From positions 1 through 5,144 of the IMG/VR virus record IMGVR_UViG_3300045988_129059: 5,144 nt of DNA; one strand, given 5' to 3'. This DNA is from a virus. Numbering within the stretch: the stretch's first letter is position 1; the number at the start of each line of letters is the position of its first letter. Below are positions 1-5,144 of the stretch, piece after piece. The translations under genes were made by a program, and so were the position numbers. Under the pieces are notes generated by a model that did no database searches, was not told where the DNA came from, and saw nothing but the letters and a program-made list of their open reading frames with translations.

Positions 1-99
1 ATCCGAGGTCCAAGCCTCGGCAGACTCTCCCATAAACTCTTTCCAGTGGCTCCAGCAGAGCCGGGACGGCACATAAAAATAATACATGTCCAAAAAAAG
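1..99. repeat. Terminal redundancy: bases 1-99 are identical to 5046-5144, which is the overlap of a circular genome assembly. The unit genome is 5045 bp.
   Basis: Direct comparison shows 1-99 (atccgaggtccaagcctcggcagactctccc...caaaaaaag) exactly equal to 5046-5144. Confidence 0.95.
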
Positions 100-330
100 A
101 TCATCCATTGGAGGTGTAATCAATGTCTGCAAACGAGTAACAAAAGAGGTCTCAATATCAAACGTATCACCGGGTAAAACCTCATCCAGATAAAACGGGA
201 CAAGATCGCCAACATTAAAAGACGTTTTAACAGAGCTGCTCCGGTCAAACCGTGACCGGGGGCGCTCAATATCTGACTTATACTGACTAAAAAAGCTATT
301 TGCATCAATCAGTTTTTTACTAAATGCCAT
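1..330 (-). CDS. VP1: VP1 N-terminal segment; bases 1-99 duplicate 5046-5144. The true start is the ATG at 330-328 (minus strand), preceded by AAGGA plus 5 nt. Read across the junction the product is MAFSKKLIDANSFFSQYKSDIERPRSRFDRSSSVKTSFNVGDLVPFYLDEVLPGDTFDIETSFVTRLQTLITPPMDDLFLDMYYFYVPSR..., 565 aa in total.
   Basis: Manual translation of the minus strand from 330 runs in frame without a stop through 100 and then 5144 down to 3678. The N-terminus matches the gokushovirus VP1 pattern (FDRS...F..G.L.P...DEVLPGDTF). The 62-aa track ORF at 120..308 is in a different frame and is spurious. Confidence 0.85.
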   Translation of the reverse strand, partial: MAFSKKLIDANSFFSQYKSDIERPRSRFDRSSSVKTSFNVGDLVPFYLDEVLPGDTFDIETSFVTRLQTLITPPMDDLFLDMYYFYVPSRLCWSHWKEFMGESAEAWTSD

Positions 331-429
331 ATCAATCCTTTCCGCCGGACAACATCACAAGTCCAGCAACATTAAGCCCAATATCAAACAATACAAGCAA
401 CACCATAATCAATAACAACACAACCATCA

Positions 430-933
430 CTATTCCTCCTTCGGCTGCTCCTTCGGCTGCTCCTTCGGCTGCTCTTTTGGCTGCTCTTTTGGAGGCTCGG
501 AAGACTGCAAAGTCTTAAGAGCATCCTCAAGATCACCATTAACAAATGACTGCACAAACAAATCAGGGTTATAATCAAACAACTTTTGCACCTCTGCCGG
601 AAACTCGCTAAACTGATCTCTAAACTGCCGTACAGACTGCATAGCATCCACAATACCTTTTGGCATCAAAGACAAATCAACGCAGTTACTCTCATCATAA
701 CCAGTCGGTATCAAACCAGCAGATAACTTATTGATGATAACAGCCATATCACACCCAGGGGCAAAACTGTTAATATAAGCACTAATGTCAACATCACGCA
801 CAGGCTTAAGGCACTTACGTCCATCCTTACCAACAGATAAAGCATACTCAGTACGCATAGTATCACCACAACACGTAGATACGGGTGCAGGATCATTAAA
901 AACATCATACATTGTCAACCATTTTTGGCTCAT
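430..933 (-). CDS. VP3: VP3 internal scaffolding protein, about 167 aa, with a C-terminal (PKEQ)x4-PKEE repeat tail. The start is probably the ATG at 933-931 (MSQKWLTMYDVF...) rather than the track start at 942.
   Basis: GAGAGGTG lies 6 nt upstream of the ATG at 933. The segment QFSEFPAEVQKLFDYNPDLFVQSF resembles Chlamydia-phage VP3 (AFSSLPSDLRNKFHNDPKELLDFI), from memory. Size and position immediately upstream of VP1 fit. The stop is TAG at 430-432. Confidence 0.7.
   Translation of the reverse strand: MSQKWLTMYDVFNDPAPVSTCCGDTMRTEYALSVGKDGRKCLKPVRDVDISAYINSFAPGCDMAVIINKLSAGLIPTGYDESNCVDLSLMPKGIVDAMQSVRQFRDQFSEFPAEVQKLFDYNPDLFVQSFVNGDLEDALKTLQSSEPPKEQPKEQPKEQPKEQPKEE
436..495. repeat. Imperfect tandem 12-nt repeat (ccttcggctgct x3, then cttttggctgct x2) encoding the PKEQ repeats at the VP3 C-terminus.
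   Basis: The periodic 12-mer is seen directly in the sequence, and the VP3 translation ends PKEQPKEQPKEQPKEQPKEE. Confidence 0.85.
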
Positions 934-1198
934 AGTCAGCACCTCTCATCATACTTTTAAGGTCAATCCCATCTTTCTGCGCCTGTAAAATAACATCATC
1001 CATCCAGATCATACCAAGCTCATCCAGCATACCGACGAGCCGAAAACTAAACTCCCTAGGCTCACCACAGGTGATCTGCTTCAGCAACGTTTTAAACGCA
1101 CGCTCTGCCCATACAGGGTCAGGGCAGATATAATACTGCATCACATGACCTGATACATCATCATAAAAAGCATAAATCAAATTGTGTAAATCTTTCAC
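905..1198 (-). CDS. Hypothetical acidic 97-aa protein with a GTG start. Size and slot are compatible with a VP5 (gpC-like) protein, but no motif is recognised.
   Basis: AGGAGG at 1208-1213 lies 9 nt upstream of the GTG at 1198-1196. The GTG overlaps the TGA stop of the upstream basic ORF (GTGA), indicating translational coupling. The 3' end overlaps the VP3 start by about 29 nt, which is typical Microviridae gene packing. Confidence 0.55.
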   Translation of the reverse strand: MKDLHNLIYAFYDDVSGHVMQYYICPDPVWAERAFKTLLKQITCGEPREFSFRLVGMLDELGMIWMDDVILQAQKDGIDLKSMMRGADYEPKMVDNV

Positions 1199-1308
1199 AG
1201 CCTAATACCTCCTCTAAATAACATTGGTCTAACATTCAATTTTTTGGTACGATCGGCAGTTTTCCTAAAAACTTTCCGATCACGTTTCTGTCTCATACGT
1301 TTTGCCAT
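1195..1308 (-). CDS. Small arginine/lysine-rich protein of 37 aa, MAKRMRQKRDRKVFRKTADRTKKLNVRPMLFRGGIRL (translated by hand), J-like (gokushovirus ORF8/VP8-like).
   Basis: The ATG at 1308-1306 is preceded by AGGAGG (1316-1321) with a 7-nt spacer. The protein is 37 aa with about 13 Arg/Lys, and the ...RGGIRL C-terminus is recalled from memory as common in small basic proteins of gut microviruses. It is absent from the ORF track because it is below 60 aa. Confidence 0.65.
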   Translation of the reverse strand: MAKRMRQKRDRKVFRKTADRTKKLNVRPMLFRGGIRL

Positions 1309-1342
1309 GTAACTACCTCCTAAAATTTAATAATACATACAA

Positions 1343-1369
1343 ATTGTATACCGGGGGGGGTATTGTCAA
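1343..1369 (-). promoter_or_regulatory. Candidate sigma70-like promoter for the J-like/ORF97/VP3/VP1 gene block. The -35 is TTGACA (plus 1364-1369) and the -10 is TACAAT (plus 1343-1348), with a 15-nt spacer that contains the homopolymer tract.
   Basis: The viral strand reads cacacTTGACAataCCCCCCCCggTATACAATttg, about 35 nt upstream of the J-like ATG and directly downstream of the rep terminator. Confidence 0.4.
1353..1360. repeat. G8 homopolymer (C8 on the viral strand) inside the promoter spacer.
   Basis: ccgggggggg is at 1351-1360. Confidence 0.9.
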
Positions 1370-1390
1370 GTGTGTTTATACAAACATAAC

Positions 1391-1428
1391 AAAAAACGCC
1401 CTTGTGATACATACGTACCACAAAGACG
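1391..1428 (-). terminator. Rho-independent terminator 4 nt downstream of the VP4 stop: a 14-bp stem (two G-U pairs) with a 4-nt loop, followed by UUUUUU.
   Basis: The viral-strand RNA folds as CGUCUUUGUGGUAC-GUAU-GUAUCACAAGGGCG-UUUUUU, paired by hand. The A6 run is at plus 1391-1396. Confidence 0.7.
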
Positions 1429-1431
1429 CAT

Positions 1432-2457
1432 TTATATATCCGGTCTCACCAACATTTTAGACTGGTGCTCTTTTGCTCGCTCATCAACAAGCAACTGCTC
1501 AAAATAATCAAGTTCGGAAGCAAAATCCTTAACCTGTTGCATCATTTTAGCCGTAGCAACACGGTTTTCGGAAAGCTTTGCATACTCCTCCGGAAAGTCA
1601 ATCTCAAAAAATGGGTCAAAGTAACGAGGGATGGGAGCAACCAGACCGCCCTCTAACTGCACGTATCCATCCTCTAGGAGCTTTTTAGCGTGTAAGTCAT
1701 AGTATTCCTTGCCTATGCCCGGTTTACGGCTCATACGGGTAAATTCGGGGCTTATAGCCATATCCTCATATACGTGTGTATTATCGCCAGTCTGTTTTTT
1801 AAGAATATAACGTGCCACATAAGCGCAGGATTGCCATGTAACACCGGCTACCAAGTTGTAGCCATAAGGCCACAACTTTTGTAAAGACAAACTTGTATAA
1901 TATTTATCACCATTTTTGGAGTATTTTAAAAATTGCAAATCATACTCCTTGGGAATCCAGTCAAACAAAATCAAATGATAATGGGGACGGTGGGACTGCT
2001 CTCCGTACTCACCAGCCAGAAAAAACCGGATTTTGATATCAATGCCTCTATAGTCCTGATCACGGCGGAGCCGTTTAATAAACCTCTGGATATCGTCCGG
2101 GACAAGGGACGGTATACCTTTTGTACCTCGTGGGAGGTGCTCATCATCATACGTAAGTGTTACAAAAAATGCAGACGTGTGGGTCTGTAACTCCAGCATA
2201 AGACGAGTAGCCCAACGCCGGGAATAATCTAAACGGCAACCAATACATTGCCCGCAGGGGATCAAAAAAGTATCTAACTGTCTCCAAGTACCAACATCCA
2301 TCTGATGATCGCTACACTCAAAGACCGACGGATTAGACCTTGACTGATATACAAACGTATTACCAGTCTCAGCTGCTTTAAAAACTTTAACTTGACGTTT
2401 ACCGCTATCTGACTTAGTATGTAAAAAAGCACCTCTGAGTGGATGATAACAAGCCAT
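1432..2457 (-). CDS. VP4: Replication initiation protein VP4 (rolling-circle HUH endonuclease, phiX174 gpA-like), 341 aa.
   Basis: Motif I is FFVTLTYD. Motif II is HYHLILF (HUH). Motif III is AYVARYILKK with two Tyr, which recalls phiX gpA YVAKYVNKK. CGQCIGCR is recalled from memory as a conserved zinc-finger-like element of gokushovirus Rep. GAGAGG lies 7 nt upstream of the ATG at 2457, and the stop is TAA at 1432-1434. Confidence 0.9.
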   Translation of the reverse strand: MACYHPLRGAFLHTKSDSGKRQVKVFKAAETGNTFVYQSRSNPSVFECSDHQMDVGTWRQLDTFLIPCGQCIGCRLDYSRRWATRLMLELQTHTSAFFVTLTYDDEHLPRGTKGIPSLVPDDIQRFIKRLRRDQDYRGIDIKIRFFLAGEYGEQSHRPHYHLILFDWIPKEYDLQFLKYSKNGDKYYTSLSLQKLWPYGYNLVAGVTWQSCAYVARYILKKQTGDNTHVYEDMAISPEFTRMSRKPGIGKEYYDLHAKKLLEDGYVQLEGGLVAPIPRYFDPFFEIDFPEEYAKLSENRVATAKMMQQVKDFASELDYFEQLLVDERAKEHQSKMLVRPDI

Positions 2458-2497
2458 GTAACTACCTCTCAGATTTTTATTTTAGGTGTTTTTGTGT

Positions 2498-2538
2498 CAC
2501 TCAGCCCAGTTACATCAAGTAGGTAACTGGGCTGAGTG
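2498..2538. other. Perfect 16-bp inverted repeat (cactcagcccagttac / gtaactgggctgagtg) with a 9-nt loop. The viral-strand loop reads CTACTTGAT. It is a candidate replication origin or complementary-strand priming hairpin.
   Basis: The arms are exact reverse complements (2498-2513 and 2523-2538). The loop resembles the phiX174 origin nick core CAACTTG|ATA. The element lies about 40 nt upstream of the rep ATG and has no flanking U-tract. Confidence 0.5.
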
Positions 2539-2549
2539 CTAACTACTCA

Positions 2550-2747
2550 CTACTTTGCCAGCAATTTACGCTCATAATAATGCTTTGCATCCAGACACCG
2601 ACAAAGATCCAAAAGCATATTATTAATATAAACAGGCATACAACTACGAGAGTCCCAATTACGCACAGTCGCAAGCGGTATCTCAAATTTATCCGCAAAC
2701 TGCACCTGCGTAAGTCCTAACCTCTGACGAATATCATGTGACGTCAT
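2550..2747 (-). CDS. Small helix-turn-helix DNA-binding protein of 65 aa (XRE family, HigA/MqsA-antitoxin-like HTH). It is a putative transcriptional regulator.
   Basis: LGLTQVQFADKFEIPLATVRNWDSRSCMP fits the HTH pattern ...L.LTQ..FA..FG....TV.NWE.GRR.P, recalled from memory. AAGGAG (2759-2764) lies 11 nt upstream of the ATG at 2747, and the stop is TAG at 2550-2552. The gene has its own promoter and palindromic operator. Confidence 0.7.
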   Translation of the reverse strand: MTSHDIRQRLGLTQVQFADKFEIPLATVRNWDSRSCMPVYINNMLLDLCRCLDAKHYYERKLLAK

Positions 2748-2764
2748 ATATAATACATCTCCTT

Positions 2765-2785
2765 TACTATGTTATAAACATAGTA
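2765..2785. promoter_or_regulatory. Operator-like palindrome tactatgtt-ata-aacatagta (9-bp arms) overlapping the -10/TSS of the HTH promoter. A third ACTATGT half-site at 2801-2807 overlaps the -35.
   Basis: The arms are exact inverted repeats, sited exactly where an autoregulatory repressor site would be expected. Confidence 0.5.
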
Positions 2786-2810
2786 TAGCAAATCTGCAGA
2801 ACTATGTCAA
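2782..2810 (-). promoter_or_regulatory. Near-consensus sigma70 promoter for the HTH gene (and possibly rep). The -35 is TTGACA (plus 2805-2810), the spacer is 17 nt, and the -10 is TATACT (plus 2782-2787).
   Basis: The viral strand reads TTGACAtagttctgcagatttgcTATACT. It begins 5 nt after the VP2 stop and 35 nt upstream of the HTH ATG. Confidence 0.55.
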
Positions 2811-2814
2811 TACA

Positions 2815-3486
2815 TTATCCAAAAATTCTACCCAAAAGTCCAGCGGCACTATTAACCATTGAGCCAATAAAGTTTGCATTTTGTCCACGCTTATCTGTTT
2901 TGGCTTTAACATCTGTACTATACTTATTACCCTTATAAGACTTATTACTAGAGTACTTAGTCGACTGATAAGACATATTAGACGCATATTGACTAGCCGC
3001 ATAATTACGATCGGCACTATACCGGGACGCATTGGCGGATGTCTGCGCCGCAAAGCGGTGAGCGTCAGCCTGCAACTGAGCCGCTTGCAAAGCAGTCTGC
3101 TGAGAGATACGAGCAGCCTCCAAAGTAGCATCCCTCTGCATCTGAGCAATCGCCTGAGCATTTGCATTATTTTGCTGATTAACAATGATCGATGTAAGAG
3201 CCGGGACAACAGATTCATCCACTTTACCAGAGGCACCGGAAGCAGTCGCACCGGAACCAGTCTGAGCACCAGAGCCACCAGCGGCAAGCACCGGGTTAAG
3301 TCCGGCTTTTTGTAAATCCAAAACCTCACGCTGATGAGCAGTGGAGGACTGCTCCGCTTGCCATTGACGATTTTTTTCCGCTTCCGCAGCATTAAATTTC
3401 ATTTCTTCGCGGGCAAATTCCTGAGATTGTGCCGTATTTTTTGCACTAATGTCTGATATTTTATTAAATAATTGATCTTCTGTCAT
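2815..3486 (-). CDS. VP2: VP2 minor capsid/DNA pilot protein, about 223 aa. The true start is probably the ATG at 3486 (MTEDQLFNKISD...) rather than the track start at 3543.
   Basis: GAGGAG lies 9 nt upstream of the ATG at 3486. The segment NRQWQAEQSSTAHQREVLDLQKAGLNPVLAAGG matches the gokushovirus VP2 motif (QREAW...ER.SNTAYQR...D.KAAGLNPILA), from memory. The rest is a low-complexity Q/A/S/G-rich region, and the stop is TAA at 2815-2817. Confidence 0.8.
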   Translation of the reverse strand: MTEDQLFNKISDISAKNTAQSQEFAREEMKFNAAEAEKNRQWQAEQSSTAHQREVLDLQKAGLNPVLAAGGSGAQTGSGATASGASGKVDESVVPALTSIIVNQQNNANAQAIAQMQRDATLEAARISQQTALQAAQLQADAHRFAAQTSANASRYSADRNYAASQYASNMSYQSTKYSSNKSYKGNKYSTDVKAKTDKRGQNANFIGSMVNSAAGLLGRIFG

Positions 3487-3580
3487 AATTTTTTCTCCTC
3501 TAGCACTCCGATCGAGACCGTAAACCAGTAAATTGTTGCACAATTTACAAGTTGACTGTCTCTCTCGTTGAGTGCTTAAT

Positions 3581-3610
3581 GGTAAACAAGGACAGACGCA
3601 CCCGTCTGTC
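3581..3610 (-). terminator. Hairpin with an 8-bp perfect stem (gacagacg-cacc-cgtctgtc), followed on the viral strand by CUUGUUUACC. It is a candidate, probably leaky, terminator about 70 nt downstream of the VP1 stop.
   Basis: Exact inverted repeat at 3591-3598 / 3603-3610 with a U-rich tail on the viral strand. Confidence 0.45.
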
Positions 3611-3665
3611 CCTGCCGTGACATATTATTAATTAAGCAACCAAAAAACTCATTTATTAAGTTTAT

Positions 3666-3686
3666 ATTACAATTTTATTACAATTT
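3666..3686. repeat. 10-bp direct repeat attacaattt x2, separated by 1 nt, spanning the VP1 stop codon.
   Basis: attacaattt is at 3666-3675 and 3677-3686. Confidence 0.6.
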
Positions 3687-5144
3687 ACGCAATCCCGGAA
3701 TACTATGGACAGGCATAACACGGGTCGTAAGGTTTTTAATATAAAAATCACCAAAGATCTGATCGGCAACTTTTGACGTAACCGCAAGAGTACGGTCAAC
3801 ATTAGTCTTATCCTCCTGTATCCAAGATGCAGACAACGTAGGTTTTTGCTGATAATAGTCAGCAAAATGCCAGGACTGCAAAGACTTGTCAATACCAGAG
3901 CGCATCTCACCAGTTACAATACTCGGTTTATAACGATAATCCGCCCAAGCCTCTTGGTAGCCAAACACATCGTCAAGACTGCCAAAACCATCATTGTCAT
4001 AATAAATCTCACGAGTATATACGGGTTGCTCTCCAATATTTGCCAAAATCGGGAAATAATAGTCCAAACGATCTCTACGAGACCACATACGATTAAGACC
4101 CTGCTGATAGGTATGATTATACCGGGCACACATAAGACCGATCACAAAGCCATGCTCCGTAAATGATTTGACAAAACTATTGTCTGTATTATTTGTCAAA
4201 GACATAGCCGCTGTCGTACCAAGAGGGGTCTGACCAGACTCCGACTGCTGGACAATCTGATGCACATTGATACGAGTACGATTAGCAGACAACAGCTCCG
4301 GACGCTGTAAACGTCCATCCGGAGAGATGACACCAAAATGACCTCGTAAAAGCTCAATATAACGACTACCTGAACGGGCATCAGTCTCAAGCATCTGTTG
4401 AGTGGCAAAAGCAAGACGCAAACTATTAACGGTCAAAGCATCAGCCGATGACGTATCACCTACAAGATTATTGGGATAAAATAAACCATAATTATCCTCT
4501 GTAATCTCACCAGTCTGACTACGATCATAACCAAAACCGGAAACATTATTAGGTCTTGATGGCAACTTAGGCGCAAGACCAACCATAACAGGAGAGACCG
4601 TCTTATTAGGCTCAAGAGATCCACCATTAATATTATACATCATCATAGCTGGCTTTTTGCCAGATACAACAGGAGCATCTCTAGTAACAATCGGGATATC
4701 ACCAAACAAAGAGGATATCGTCACATCATCACCTTTCTGCGGCTCGGGCAGTACAGACGTAAAATAATCATGTAATTTATTGACTTTTAAAAGCTTACCA
4801 CCTTTTGCGGAGTTATTAGCATCAAATCTAACATCACCATCATCAGTATCAACCAAAATAGCGTCCTGCAAATTCTCATCCCGAAACCACTCATTCCAGA
4901 TCAGGTTATAAGCATTAATCGGCAGCCGAGAGATGGATAATACTCCACTTGGGTTAACCGGTACTCCAAAATAATCTAAAAGTGATTTTTGGAGCGGCTT
5001 TTTGTCAGATGCCTCATAGATCAACTGTGGGACCTGATAAGTAACATCCGAGGTCCAAGCCTCGGCAGACTCTCCCATAAACTCTTTCCAGTGGCTCCAG
5101 CAGAGCCGGGACGGCACATAAAAATAATACATGTCCAAAAAAAG
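3678..5144 (-). CDS. VP1: Major capsid protein VP1 (Microviridae F-like), C-terminal about 488 codons including the TAA stop at 3678-3680. The ORF continues upstream through the circular junction into 100-330.
   Basis: The 486-aa track ORF contains the conserved Microviridae capsid motif AYNLIWNEWFRDENLQD. The segment MDDLFLDMYYFYVPSRLCWSHWKEFMGES parallels Chlamydia phage VP1 (MDNLRLDTQYFFVPLRLIWSNFQKFCGEQ), recalled from memory rather than aligned. Length and composition are typical of gokushovirus VP1. Confidence 0.9.
   Translation of the reverse strand, partial: LFLDMYYFYVPSRLCWSHWKEFMGESAEAWTSDVTYQVPQLIYEASDKKPLQKSLLDYFGVPVNPSGVLSISRLPINAYNLIWNEWFRDENLQDAILVDTDDGDVRFDANNSAKGGKLLKVNKLHDYFTSVLPEPQKGDDVTISSLFGDIPIVTRDAPVVSGKKPAMMMYNINGGSLEPNKTVSPVMVGLAPKLPSRPNNVSGFGYDRSQTGEITEDNYGLFYPNNLVGDTSSADALTVNSLRLAFATQQMLETDARSGSRYIELLRGHFGVISPDGRLQRPELLSANRTRINVHQIVQQSESGQTPLGTTAAMSLTNNTDNSFVKSFTEHGFVIGLMCARYNHTYQQGLNRMWSRRDRLDYYFPILANIGEQPVYTREIYYDNDGFGSLDDVFGYQEAWADYRYKPSIVTGEMRSGIDKSLQSWHFADYYQQKPTLSASWIQEDKTNVDRTLAVTSKVADQIFGDFYIKNLTTRVMPVHSIPGLRKL
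5046..5144. repeat. Second copy of the terminal redundancy (identical to 1-99).
   Basis: Exact 99-nt identity with the window start. Confidence 0.95.

Follow-up and report, generated by a model that had tools for sequence, protein, structure and literature searches.

A conserved poly-C tract of variable length in the spacer of a putative structural-gene promoter of gut microviruses

Phase variation through homopolymeric tracts in promoter spacers is a textbook strategy of bacteria, and hypermutable tracts inside the open reading frames (ORFs) of phages have been recognised recently. In Neisseria meningitidis, slippage of the poly-G tract in the porA spacer alters how far apart the −35 and −10 elements lie and results in graded high, medium or low expression (PMC7864442). 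In Treponema pallidum, too, promoter poly-G tracts are an established means of phase variation, and 76% of 17 tested tracts vary in length (PMC7864442). For tp0126, which encodes an OmpW homologue (Giacani et al, 2015), a poly-G tract is reported to separate the −35 from the −10, with the best transcription at 17-nt spacing (PMC7864442). Among phages, the Campylobacter Fletchervirus phages carry hypermutable polyG tracts in receptor-binding genes (Sorensen et al, 2021), and the T-even phages have contingency loci in ORFs (bioRxiv 10.1101/2025.10.21.683753); promoters and Microviridae are nowhere mentioned in the latter preprint. Here, we describe a poly-C tract in the spacer of a putative sigma-70-type promoter that lies between the rep gene and the structural genes of a microvirus, as found in the 5,144-nt IMG/VR record IMGVR_UViG_3300045988_129059 (positions 1 to 5,144; this whole stretch is referred to as the window), together with its relatives and with similar promoters in bacteria. 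Searches of the literature on Microviridae with homopolymer, promoter or phase variation, and on Treponema with Microviridae, returned nothing describing such a locus. Promoters with a homopolymer in the spacer were already known from bacteria and hypermutable tracts from phage ORFs; within the literature searched, what is new is a conserved hypermutable tract in the promoter of microvirus structural genes.

Every gene of the window is encoded on the minus strand (ORF list), and the elements described below are read on that strand. The stop codon of Rep (1434..1432) is followed by the inverted repeat GCGTCTTTGTGGTAC-GTAT-GTATCACAAGGGCG, TTTTTT, 26 nt, the consensus −35 hexamer TTGACA (1369..1364), ATA (1363..1361), the C8 tract CCCCCCCC (1353..1360, G8 on the plus strand), GGTA as the final four bases of the spacer (1352..1349), the −10 hexamer TACAAT (1348..1343), 22 nt, the Shine-Dalgarno (SD) sequence GGAGG (1320..1316), 7 nt and the ATG (1308) of a gene for a J-like basic protein of 37 amino acids (1195..1308), the first gene after the promoter. 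The hairpin (1429..1396) has 15 bp, of which 6 are G-C pairs, and a loop of 4; with its T6 (A6 on the plus strand, 1391–1396) it constitutes an intrinsic terminator (1391..1429), which ranked top in the terminator scan; no other site on the coding strand of the circular genome made a convincing terminator. A preliminary description of this region, made from the sequence alone, had placed TTGACA after the rep terminator, followed by ata, C8, gg and TACAAT with a 15-nt spacer, and all of these elements were located at those positions. The promoter scan accepted spacers of 16–18 nt only, and the site was missing from the scan of the window because its spacer is 15 nt. Only two near-consensus promoters are present in the genome, namely, this one and TTGACA-17-TATACT (2810..2782) before the gene of a helix-turn-helix (HTH) protein. 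Apart from the C8/G8 tract, no run of G or C in the genome of 5,045 nt exceeds 5, and a first-order model predicts about 0.02 runs of 8 or more for either base. A perfect 6-1-6 palindrome ATACAATTTGTAT (1338..1350) overlapping the −10 was found in the closest clade only and is absent from the other clades, which places it outside the conserved core.

The conservation of this arrangement was examined in 27 related genomes obtained from ENA and Logan assemblies by exact-protein look-ups with the J-like protein and ORF97 homologues, in six further relatives obtained from IMG/VR with a loosened DNA pattern, and in two GenBank isolates of Dulem virus 137, which were added to the set. Their Rep proteins show from about 64% to about 100% identity to that of the window. 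The exact look-up with Rep retrieved no contig, and the first pattern, which demanded AATTTGTAT after the −10, had no match in IMG/VR or JGI metagenomes; AATTTGTAT is clade-specific and the search pattern was therefore loosened. Every related genome so retrieved was found to contain TTGACA-ATA-Cn-GGTA-TAnAAT (TTGACAATA-Cn-GGTA-TAnAAT) immediately before the J-like gene. This module was kept even where the remaining intergenic sequence was entirely replaced, and the differences between the clades begin 8 nt upstream and 12 nt downstream of it. A neighbour-joining tree was built from 33 whole genomes, and its branches sum to 1.53 substitutions per site. No substitution fell on the 18 fixed positions of the module, compared with about 27.6 expected at the genome-average rate [P(≤2) = 4e-10]; only L116, with an additional G, and L117, with a short rearrangement immediately preceding the −10, depart from the common form there. 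The variation in the −10 was confined to position 3 of the hexamer, which was TACAAT in 19, TATAAT in 17, TAGAAT in 4 and TAAAAT in 3 copies, bacterial copies included. The third position of the −10 is the least constrained one in sigma-70 promoters. The promoter scan scored the site of Dulem virus 137 as 12/12 with a 17-nt spacer and that of L087 as 11/12 with a 16-nt spacer, and the SD and ATG were located 23–35 nt downstream of the −10 in the window and its relatives. The terminator was kept as an architecture and not as a sequence, as at least five unrelated versions of a hairpin with a T-run occupy the equivalent place in the relatives, and the module was retained in L093–L098 despite a gene of 95 amino acids inserted between Rep and the module. 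With high confidence, the region is therefore a real terminator–promoter junction. The preliminary description had named relatives that keep the promoter and lack the tract as evidence that would speak against it; instead, every one of the 33 genomes with the promoter has an uninterrupted C tract.

The length of the tract varied among these genomes, whereas a fixed length was the other finding that would have spoken against the preliminary description. It was C7 in eight, C8 in 12, C9 in 11 and C10 in two of the 33, which corresponds to spacers of 14–17 nt, since the spacer consists of ATA, Cn and GGTA and is n+7 nt long. The lengths of 7–10 are the range that had been proposed in the preliminary description, and its expectation that one or two additional C residues would bring the spacer to 16–17 nt is borne out by relatives in which C9 gives 16 nt and C10 gives 17 nt, the latter with perfect hexamers. 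At least 14 Fitch changes, or 16 one-nucleotide steps, with both gain and loss, were required on the 33-tip tree. Coding-region substitutions confounded a control that took in every homopolymer run of at least 6, and near-identical genome pairs were used instead. The genomes L088 (C9) and L089 (C8) differ at the tract alone, with no substitution in 5,065 nt, whereas one substitution separates L088 from L082 or L090 (C8). The window (C8) differs from L091 (C9) by 2 substitutions, an in-frame repeat indel of 12 nt and, close to a contig end, a gap of 26 nt, and from L087 (C9) by 4 substitutions and in-frame repeat indels of 9 and 12 nt. In the isolates of Dulem virus 137 from two lemur species, PP511361 (C10) and PP511473 (C9), the tract is the single difference in 5,067 nt. 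Because such near-identical pairs differ at the tract, its length changes about as fast as substitutions accumulate in the entire remaining genome, and hence much faster than any other single site. The other length differences of the window from L087 and L091 were in-frame tandem-repeat indels only, and these form a second class of fast-evolving sites; the 12-nt unit CCAAAAGAGCAG encodes the PKEQ repeats at the C terminus of the scaffold protein VP3 (about 430–490 in the window), and the 9-nt unit lies inside ORF97 (905–1198).

The tract remained pure while it changed in length. None of the 33 genomes had an interruption compared with 10.7 substitutions expected (P = 2e-5), which argues for selection on the pure run. 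Furthermore, the length was constant within lineages across independent samples and assemblers, being C7 in L104–L107 and in L083/L085/L086, and C8 in L093/L094/L095/L098 and in L082/L089/L090, and an assembly artefact is therefore unlikely. Contig ends fell within 40 nt of the tract in 5 of 34 cases against 0.7 expected (P = 6.5e-4), an indirect hint of differing lengths within populations, though one that poor sequencing through G/C runs could also cause; the contigs ending there were L117 (at both ends), L097, L100, L103 and L082. The two copies of the terminal overlap of L117 disagree, with CAATA-C9 in one and CAAT-C11 in the other, reflecting either real heterogeneity or a homopolymer read error. 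Some other copies were of a different make. The rearranged or chimeric IMG/VR contig L114 (2,647 nt) carries the end of Rep, an interrupted module (C6-T-C-GG, TATAAT; 940–962) and then directly the C-terminal third of VP1; among the phage copies, only L117 with its C9-A-GG has an interrupted tract besides. The IMG/VR relative L001 (1–150; 68% Rep identity) was without the poly-C module, and its J-like gene is preceded by two copies of GTGGAACA-N-TGTTTCACGTGAAACAT, a direct repeat containing an inverted repeat, as a different regulatory solution at the equivalent position. A scan for TTGACAATAC7 in other viral contigs returned mostly unrelated contexts. One 18-kb non-microvirus IMG/VR contig (L376, 1274–1310) has TTGACAATA-C8-ACTG-TATATT upstream of a gene, like the ACTA variant of the Treponema module described below, and from this sequence the poly-C promoter class may be common to other phages of the same host.

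Similar modules were also found in bacteria. Two bacterial contigs, L352 and L178, had an unbroken phage-type tract among the matches listed. The first of them, from the Treponema sp. metagenome-assembled genome (MAG) GCA_017614295.1 (buffalo rumen), carries TTGACAATA-C9-GGTA-TAAAAT directly before a signal-peptide ORF, and three paralogous signal-peptide genes of this MAG have the module with C9-GGTA, C8-ACTA and the interrupted C3TC6-GGGGTA, respectively. The full form of the second is TTGACAATA-C8-ACTA-TATAAT, with C9 at the same gene in three other assemblies including GCA_017961705.1, and that of the third is TTGACAATA-CCCTCCCCCC-GGGGTA-TAAAAT. The poly-C module is thus polymorphic in length (C8/C9) in bacteria too. 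The contig L178 and its 76%-identical homologue loci L357 and L358, from loris, goose and other gut samples, contain TTGACAATA-C8-GGTA-TAGAAT before a lipoprotein gene. A further homologue of the Treponema protein family, P0033, was without the module, and hence not every member of the family is so controlled. The GC content of the phages (38.5–42%) agrees with that of the bacterial module loci (39–42%). As judged from sequence, the phage module appears to be one instance of a class of exported-protein promoters present in Treponema and at least one other gut bacterium. Since the same design precedes secreted-protein and lipoprotein genes in Treponema, the phage has most likely adopted the promoter type of its host, and that host is probably a gut Treponema, as far as these few loci indicate.

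These findings together make it probable that the tract acts in a length-variable sigma-70 promoter, of a probable host type found in a gut or rumen Treponema, in which the slippage-prone Cn spacer sets the expression of the structural genes. Transcription of the coding strand would be halted at the hairpin and T6 after Rep, insulating the structural block from upstream transcription, and the sigma-70-type promoter (TTGACA/TAnAAT) 26 nt beyond the terminator would restart it from a predicted start downstream of the −10, driving the genes for the J-like protein, ORF97, the scaffold, a 32-amino-acid ORF and the capsid protein VP1. The genome would thereby have two transcription units, HTH–Rep and J–ORF97–scaffold–capsid, and the strength of the latter would depend on n. 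Slipped-strand mispairing at the C run in rolling-circle replication would frequently yield n−1 and n+1 variants, resulting in phage lineages with spacers of 14, 15, 16 and 17 nt and probably in subpopulations too. The strength of sigma-70 promoters peaks near a spacer of 17 nt, and tract length should therefore set the level of structural-gene mRNA relative to the Rep unit. From this property and from the porA and tp0126 precedents, spacers near 17 nt are expected to be strong and those of 14–15 nt weak, so that the C8 of the window (15 nt) would be a weakened setting. The tract would amount to a heritable yet reversible setting of the ratio of structural to replication expression. The preliminary description had suggested a possible phase-variable late promoter whose tract would tune the structural genes, and it is supported as regards a promoter of variable length; it did not anticipate that Treponema chromosomal genes share the module. 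As the commonest spacers are 15–16 nt and C7 lineages persist in several samples, the tract is probably a volume control (rheostat) rather than an on/off switch.

When compared with the known systems, the locus shares with the porA and tp0126 type that hexamers flank the tract at promoter distance, that the length differs between isolates with identical flanks, and that the changes are recurrent and reversible. The tp0126 promoter of T. pallidum is the closest known system; as described in PMC7864442, both have a G/C homopolymer of variable length in a sigma-70 spacer, and it belongs to an exported-protein gene of the genus Treponema. The phage promoter differs in being viral and in preceding structural genes, and the comparison is at the level of the architecture described for tp0126. 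The range of 14–17 nt resembles the rheostat of porA, which differs in organism and sequence and serves a bacterial surface antigen under immune selection. The tracts of Fletchervirus and T-even phages likewise mutate often and give rise to heterogeneous populations, and the Campylobacter phages mirror a mechanism typical of their host. Those tracts, however, lie mainly in ORFs and cause frameshifts, whereas the tract described here lies in the promoter spacer of a 5-kb single-stranded DNA (ssDNA) phage and would act, if at all, on transcription.

Several observations weigh against control of expression by tract length. Most genomes have spacers of 15–16 nt and stable C7 lineages with 14 nt recur across samples (L083/L085/L086, L104–L107), so short spacers are tolerated, and either the promoter is non-essential, as read-through of the Rep terminator may suffice, or the spacing is less important than supposed. 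A model of RNA polymerase spacing alone does not call for invariant ATA and GGTA, which hints that some other factor binds there as well. The breaks of contigs near the tract could stem from poor sequencing of the G/C run instead of heterogeneity within populations, and the host link consists of one Treponema MAG, the paralogues of its gene and one other gut bacterium among the matches listed, i.e., few loci. The main alternative, to which we give a minor though real chance, is that the tract is a passenger, in which case the phage would have acquired, or converged on, a host-type promoter with an incidental poly-C whose length changes are mutational noise with modest, non-adaptive effects on expression, and its mutability would be unselected. 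Any run of C8–C10 slips, other homopolymers vary occasionally (e.g., T8 versus T9 in the terminator of the inserted gene in L098), and the centring of lengths on suboptimal 15–16-nt spacers, with C7 lineages stable across samples, is not what a simple on/off switch predicts. An unselected run, however, should decay by point substitution, and the lack of interruptions noted above, with the pure run retained across lineages of 64–100% Rep identity, points to selection on the run itself; moreover, the same architecture stands before Treponema surface-protein genes, which are classic targets of contingency loci. It is highly improbable that the true length is fixed and that errors of sequencing or assembly at the homopolymer created the differences. 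Errors are common in G/C homopolymers, coverage is low for some contigs (3.5 for L091), and read errors could explain the contig breaks and the C9/C11 disagreement in L117, but the lengths were reproducible within lineages across independent samples and assemblers, the differences between lineages were tree-structured yet homoplastic, two curated GenBank genomes differ at the tract only, and the bacterial orthologue shows the C8/C9 polymorphism as well.

Two further explanations assign the conserved core another function. The C tract, flanked by ATA/TAT and TAC/GTA, could be an operator for a host CsoR/RcnR (DUF156) or a similar shape-reading repressor, kept for binding through an A-form-like G/C tract and not for slippage. 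Type 1 sites of CsoR have a single G/C tract of 3–8 with an inverted-repeat spacing of 6–9, whereas type 2 sites have two tracts separated by 2–4 intervening bases, a spacing of about 11 and conserved TAC/GTA dyads; a half-site does not bind CsoR, and the G/C tracts are read by shape (PMC3902906). All the phage copies read A-TAC-C(n-1)G-GTA-T and so have the dyads named in that definition of CsoR/RcnR operators (PMC3902906). The phage-derived pattern (TTGACAATACCCCC...GGTATA) matched more than 120 contigs of bacterial genomes and over 119 from metagenomes, and nearly all the bacterial matches were TTGACA-ATACCCCC(TA)GGGGGTAT-A promoters. At the two loci examined (L276 and L262; Eggerthella and Nomurabacteria), csoR (PF02583, E = 6e-27 and 3e-25) and a copA-type ATPase gene lie downstream; these promoters drive csoR and the CopA-type ATPase and are therefore CsoR operators placed in the promoter spacer. 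In addition, the C10 form of the phage is 18 nt, equal to the commonest CsoR operator, the invariance of ATA and GGTA in phages fits sequence-specific recognition, and L359 (ATACCCTCCCCCCGGGGTAT) resembles an intermediate form. Yet phages that are nearly identical differ in dyad spacing, from TAC-X7-GTA up to TAC-X10-GTA, a variation that should not be compatible with a dimeric or tetrameric binder, and the unbroken G/C stretch of 9–12 bp falls outside the fixed geometry of both type 1 and type 2 definitions. The ACTA that replaces GGTA in one Treponema paralogue shows the GTA dyad to be dispensable, no DUF156-like (PF02583) protein was found among the phage proteins with Pfam, and the genes downstream are phage structural genes or, for the bacterial poly-C modules, signal-peptide and lipoprotein genes and not csoR/copA; the resemblance is also partly a product of the search pattern. 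We therefore regard a CsoR-type operator in the phage module as unlikely. It is hardly credible that the core is a replication element, such as the Rep nick site or origin or a complementary-strand origin in ssDNA, instead of a promoter. The core adjoins rep and is conserved more than any other non-coding part of the genome, and ATACC/GGTAT could pair as a 5-bp hairpin with a C loop. Against this, the module precedes ordinary bacterial chromosomal genes at promoter distance from the SD and ATG, the ssDNA fold has no stable structure at the tract (region z = −1.3), the region folding no better than shuffled sequences except for the terminator, and the conservation follows the −35 and −10 hexamers with variation at −10 position 3 only. 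No Rfam family matched in the region.

The CsoR-type promoters constitute a lead of their own. The form TTGACA-ATACCCCC(TA)GGGGGTAT-A(TACT/TAAT) occurred in hundreds of contigs (L118–L356, bacterial genomes and metagenomes) from Patescibacteria (Nomurabacteria, Saccharibacteria, Paceibacterota), Clostridia, Eggerthellaceae, Collinsella and Bifidobacteriaceae. With csoR–copA seen in the two loci examined, this csoR–copA promoter–operator is an unusually uniform regulatory cassette over distant phyla. The CsoR/RcnR operators share with the phage module the −35, ATAC, a G/C tract, GTAT running into the −10 and, at C10, the length of 18 nt; the phage module differs in its one unbroken variable C run without the palindrome of a C-run and a G-run, its unfixed dyad spacing and the lack of a DUF156 gene. 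Speculatively, CsoR-type operator promoters may have given rise to the poly-C promoter class of Treponema when their C run expanded.

The window itself represents a circular microvirus genome with a unit of 5,045 nt and a terminal redundancy of 99 nt. The order of genes on the minus strand is VP1, the pilot protein VP2, a 65-amino-acid HTH protein, Rep, the intergenic region, the J-like protein, ORF97, the Chlamy_scaf scaffold, a 32-amino-acid hydrophobic ORF and VP1 again. The Rep (VP4-like) ORF spans 2457..1432 (Pfam REP_ORF2-G2P, E = 8.7e-20). Of the unit downstream of the promoter, the J-like protein has identical copies in at least 57 index blocks of public assemblies, ORF97 (905..1198) is the second gene with a weak similarity to Phage_ORF5 (E = 0.011), and the internal scaffolding protein (VP3-like, Chlamy_scaf; 430..933, Pfam E = 2.7e-20) is the third. 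The gene of the major capsid protein VP1 starts at 330 (first part 1..330) and continues across the circular junction to 3678, giving a full protein of 565 amino acids; the ORF rebuilt over the junction was free of stops and Phage_F was found in the relatives. Pfam matches were obtained for Rep, the scaffold and, weakly, the 65-amino-acid HTH protein. With a circle of about 5 kb, a Phage_F capsid, Chlamy_scaf, a pilot protein, a rolling-circle Rep and a small basic DNA-binding protein, the genome belongs to the gokushovirus-like Microviridae. The nearest deposited genome was Dulem virus 137 from lemur faeces, for which the megablast alignment covered the capsid and pilot-protein region only (26% of the query, 77.5% identity). 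The intergenic region had no close relative among the deposited phages, yet Dulem virus 137 (L108) does carry the module.

Some other features of these genomes were also recorded. The HTH-gene promoter (window 2766–2810) has TTGACA, 17 nt with TGc and TATACT at 2810..2782, and a perfect 8-3-8 palindrome ACTATGTTTATAACATAGT (2784..2766) that overlaps its −10 and looks like an autoregulatory operator of the HTH gene; a regulated repressor-like gene is unusual for a microvirus. The 95-amino-acid gene of the six relatives L093–L098 (e.g., L093 4354–4717) lies between the Rep terminator and the poly-C promoter and is preceded by a copy of the TTGACA-17-TATACT promoter with the ATGTTTATAACATA operator cassette, as before the HTH gene of the window, and from this arrangement it looks like a moron-like insertion controlled by the phage repressor; there is no recorded Pfam match for it. 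The strongly hydrophobic ORF of 32 amino acids, MMVVLLLIMVLLVLFDIGLNVAGLVMLSGGKD (332–430, minus strand), lies between the scaffold and capsid genes, was also called as a gene in L083, L085, L093 and L100, and is a candidate membrane or lysis peptide. The ORF97 homologue of Dulem virus 137 (L108/PP511361 4218–4511; family P0007) is named “replication initiator protein” in GenBank and UniRef, an annotation identical to that of the true Rep of this virus; ORF97 is without a Rep domain, and the name is probably an annotation carry-over.

This locus is of interest because its module is conserved, has a clean record in public genomes and lends itself to direct tests. We tentatively suggest that the clade infects Treponema and has adopted the contingency-promoter design of its host (TTGACAATA-Cn-...-TAnAAT), and that its populations may continuously generate expression variants as a form of bet-hedging at the level of the promoter, for instance with fast lytic infection on one side and a slow or carrier-type course on the other. 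If true, a promoter-spacer contingency locus would be described in a phage for the first time, and Microviridae would for the first time be linked to Treponema spirochaetes. If the tract is functional, its length would need to be checked when microvirus genomes are compared or synthesised, as two GenBank genomes differ there alone, and the shared module would provide a sequence-based assignment of widespread uncultured microviruses of the primate and human gut to Treponema hosts. Even the smallest phages would then carry an evolvable expression knob.

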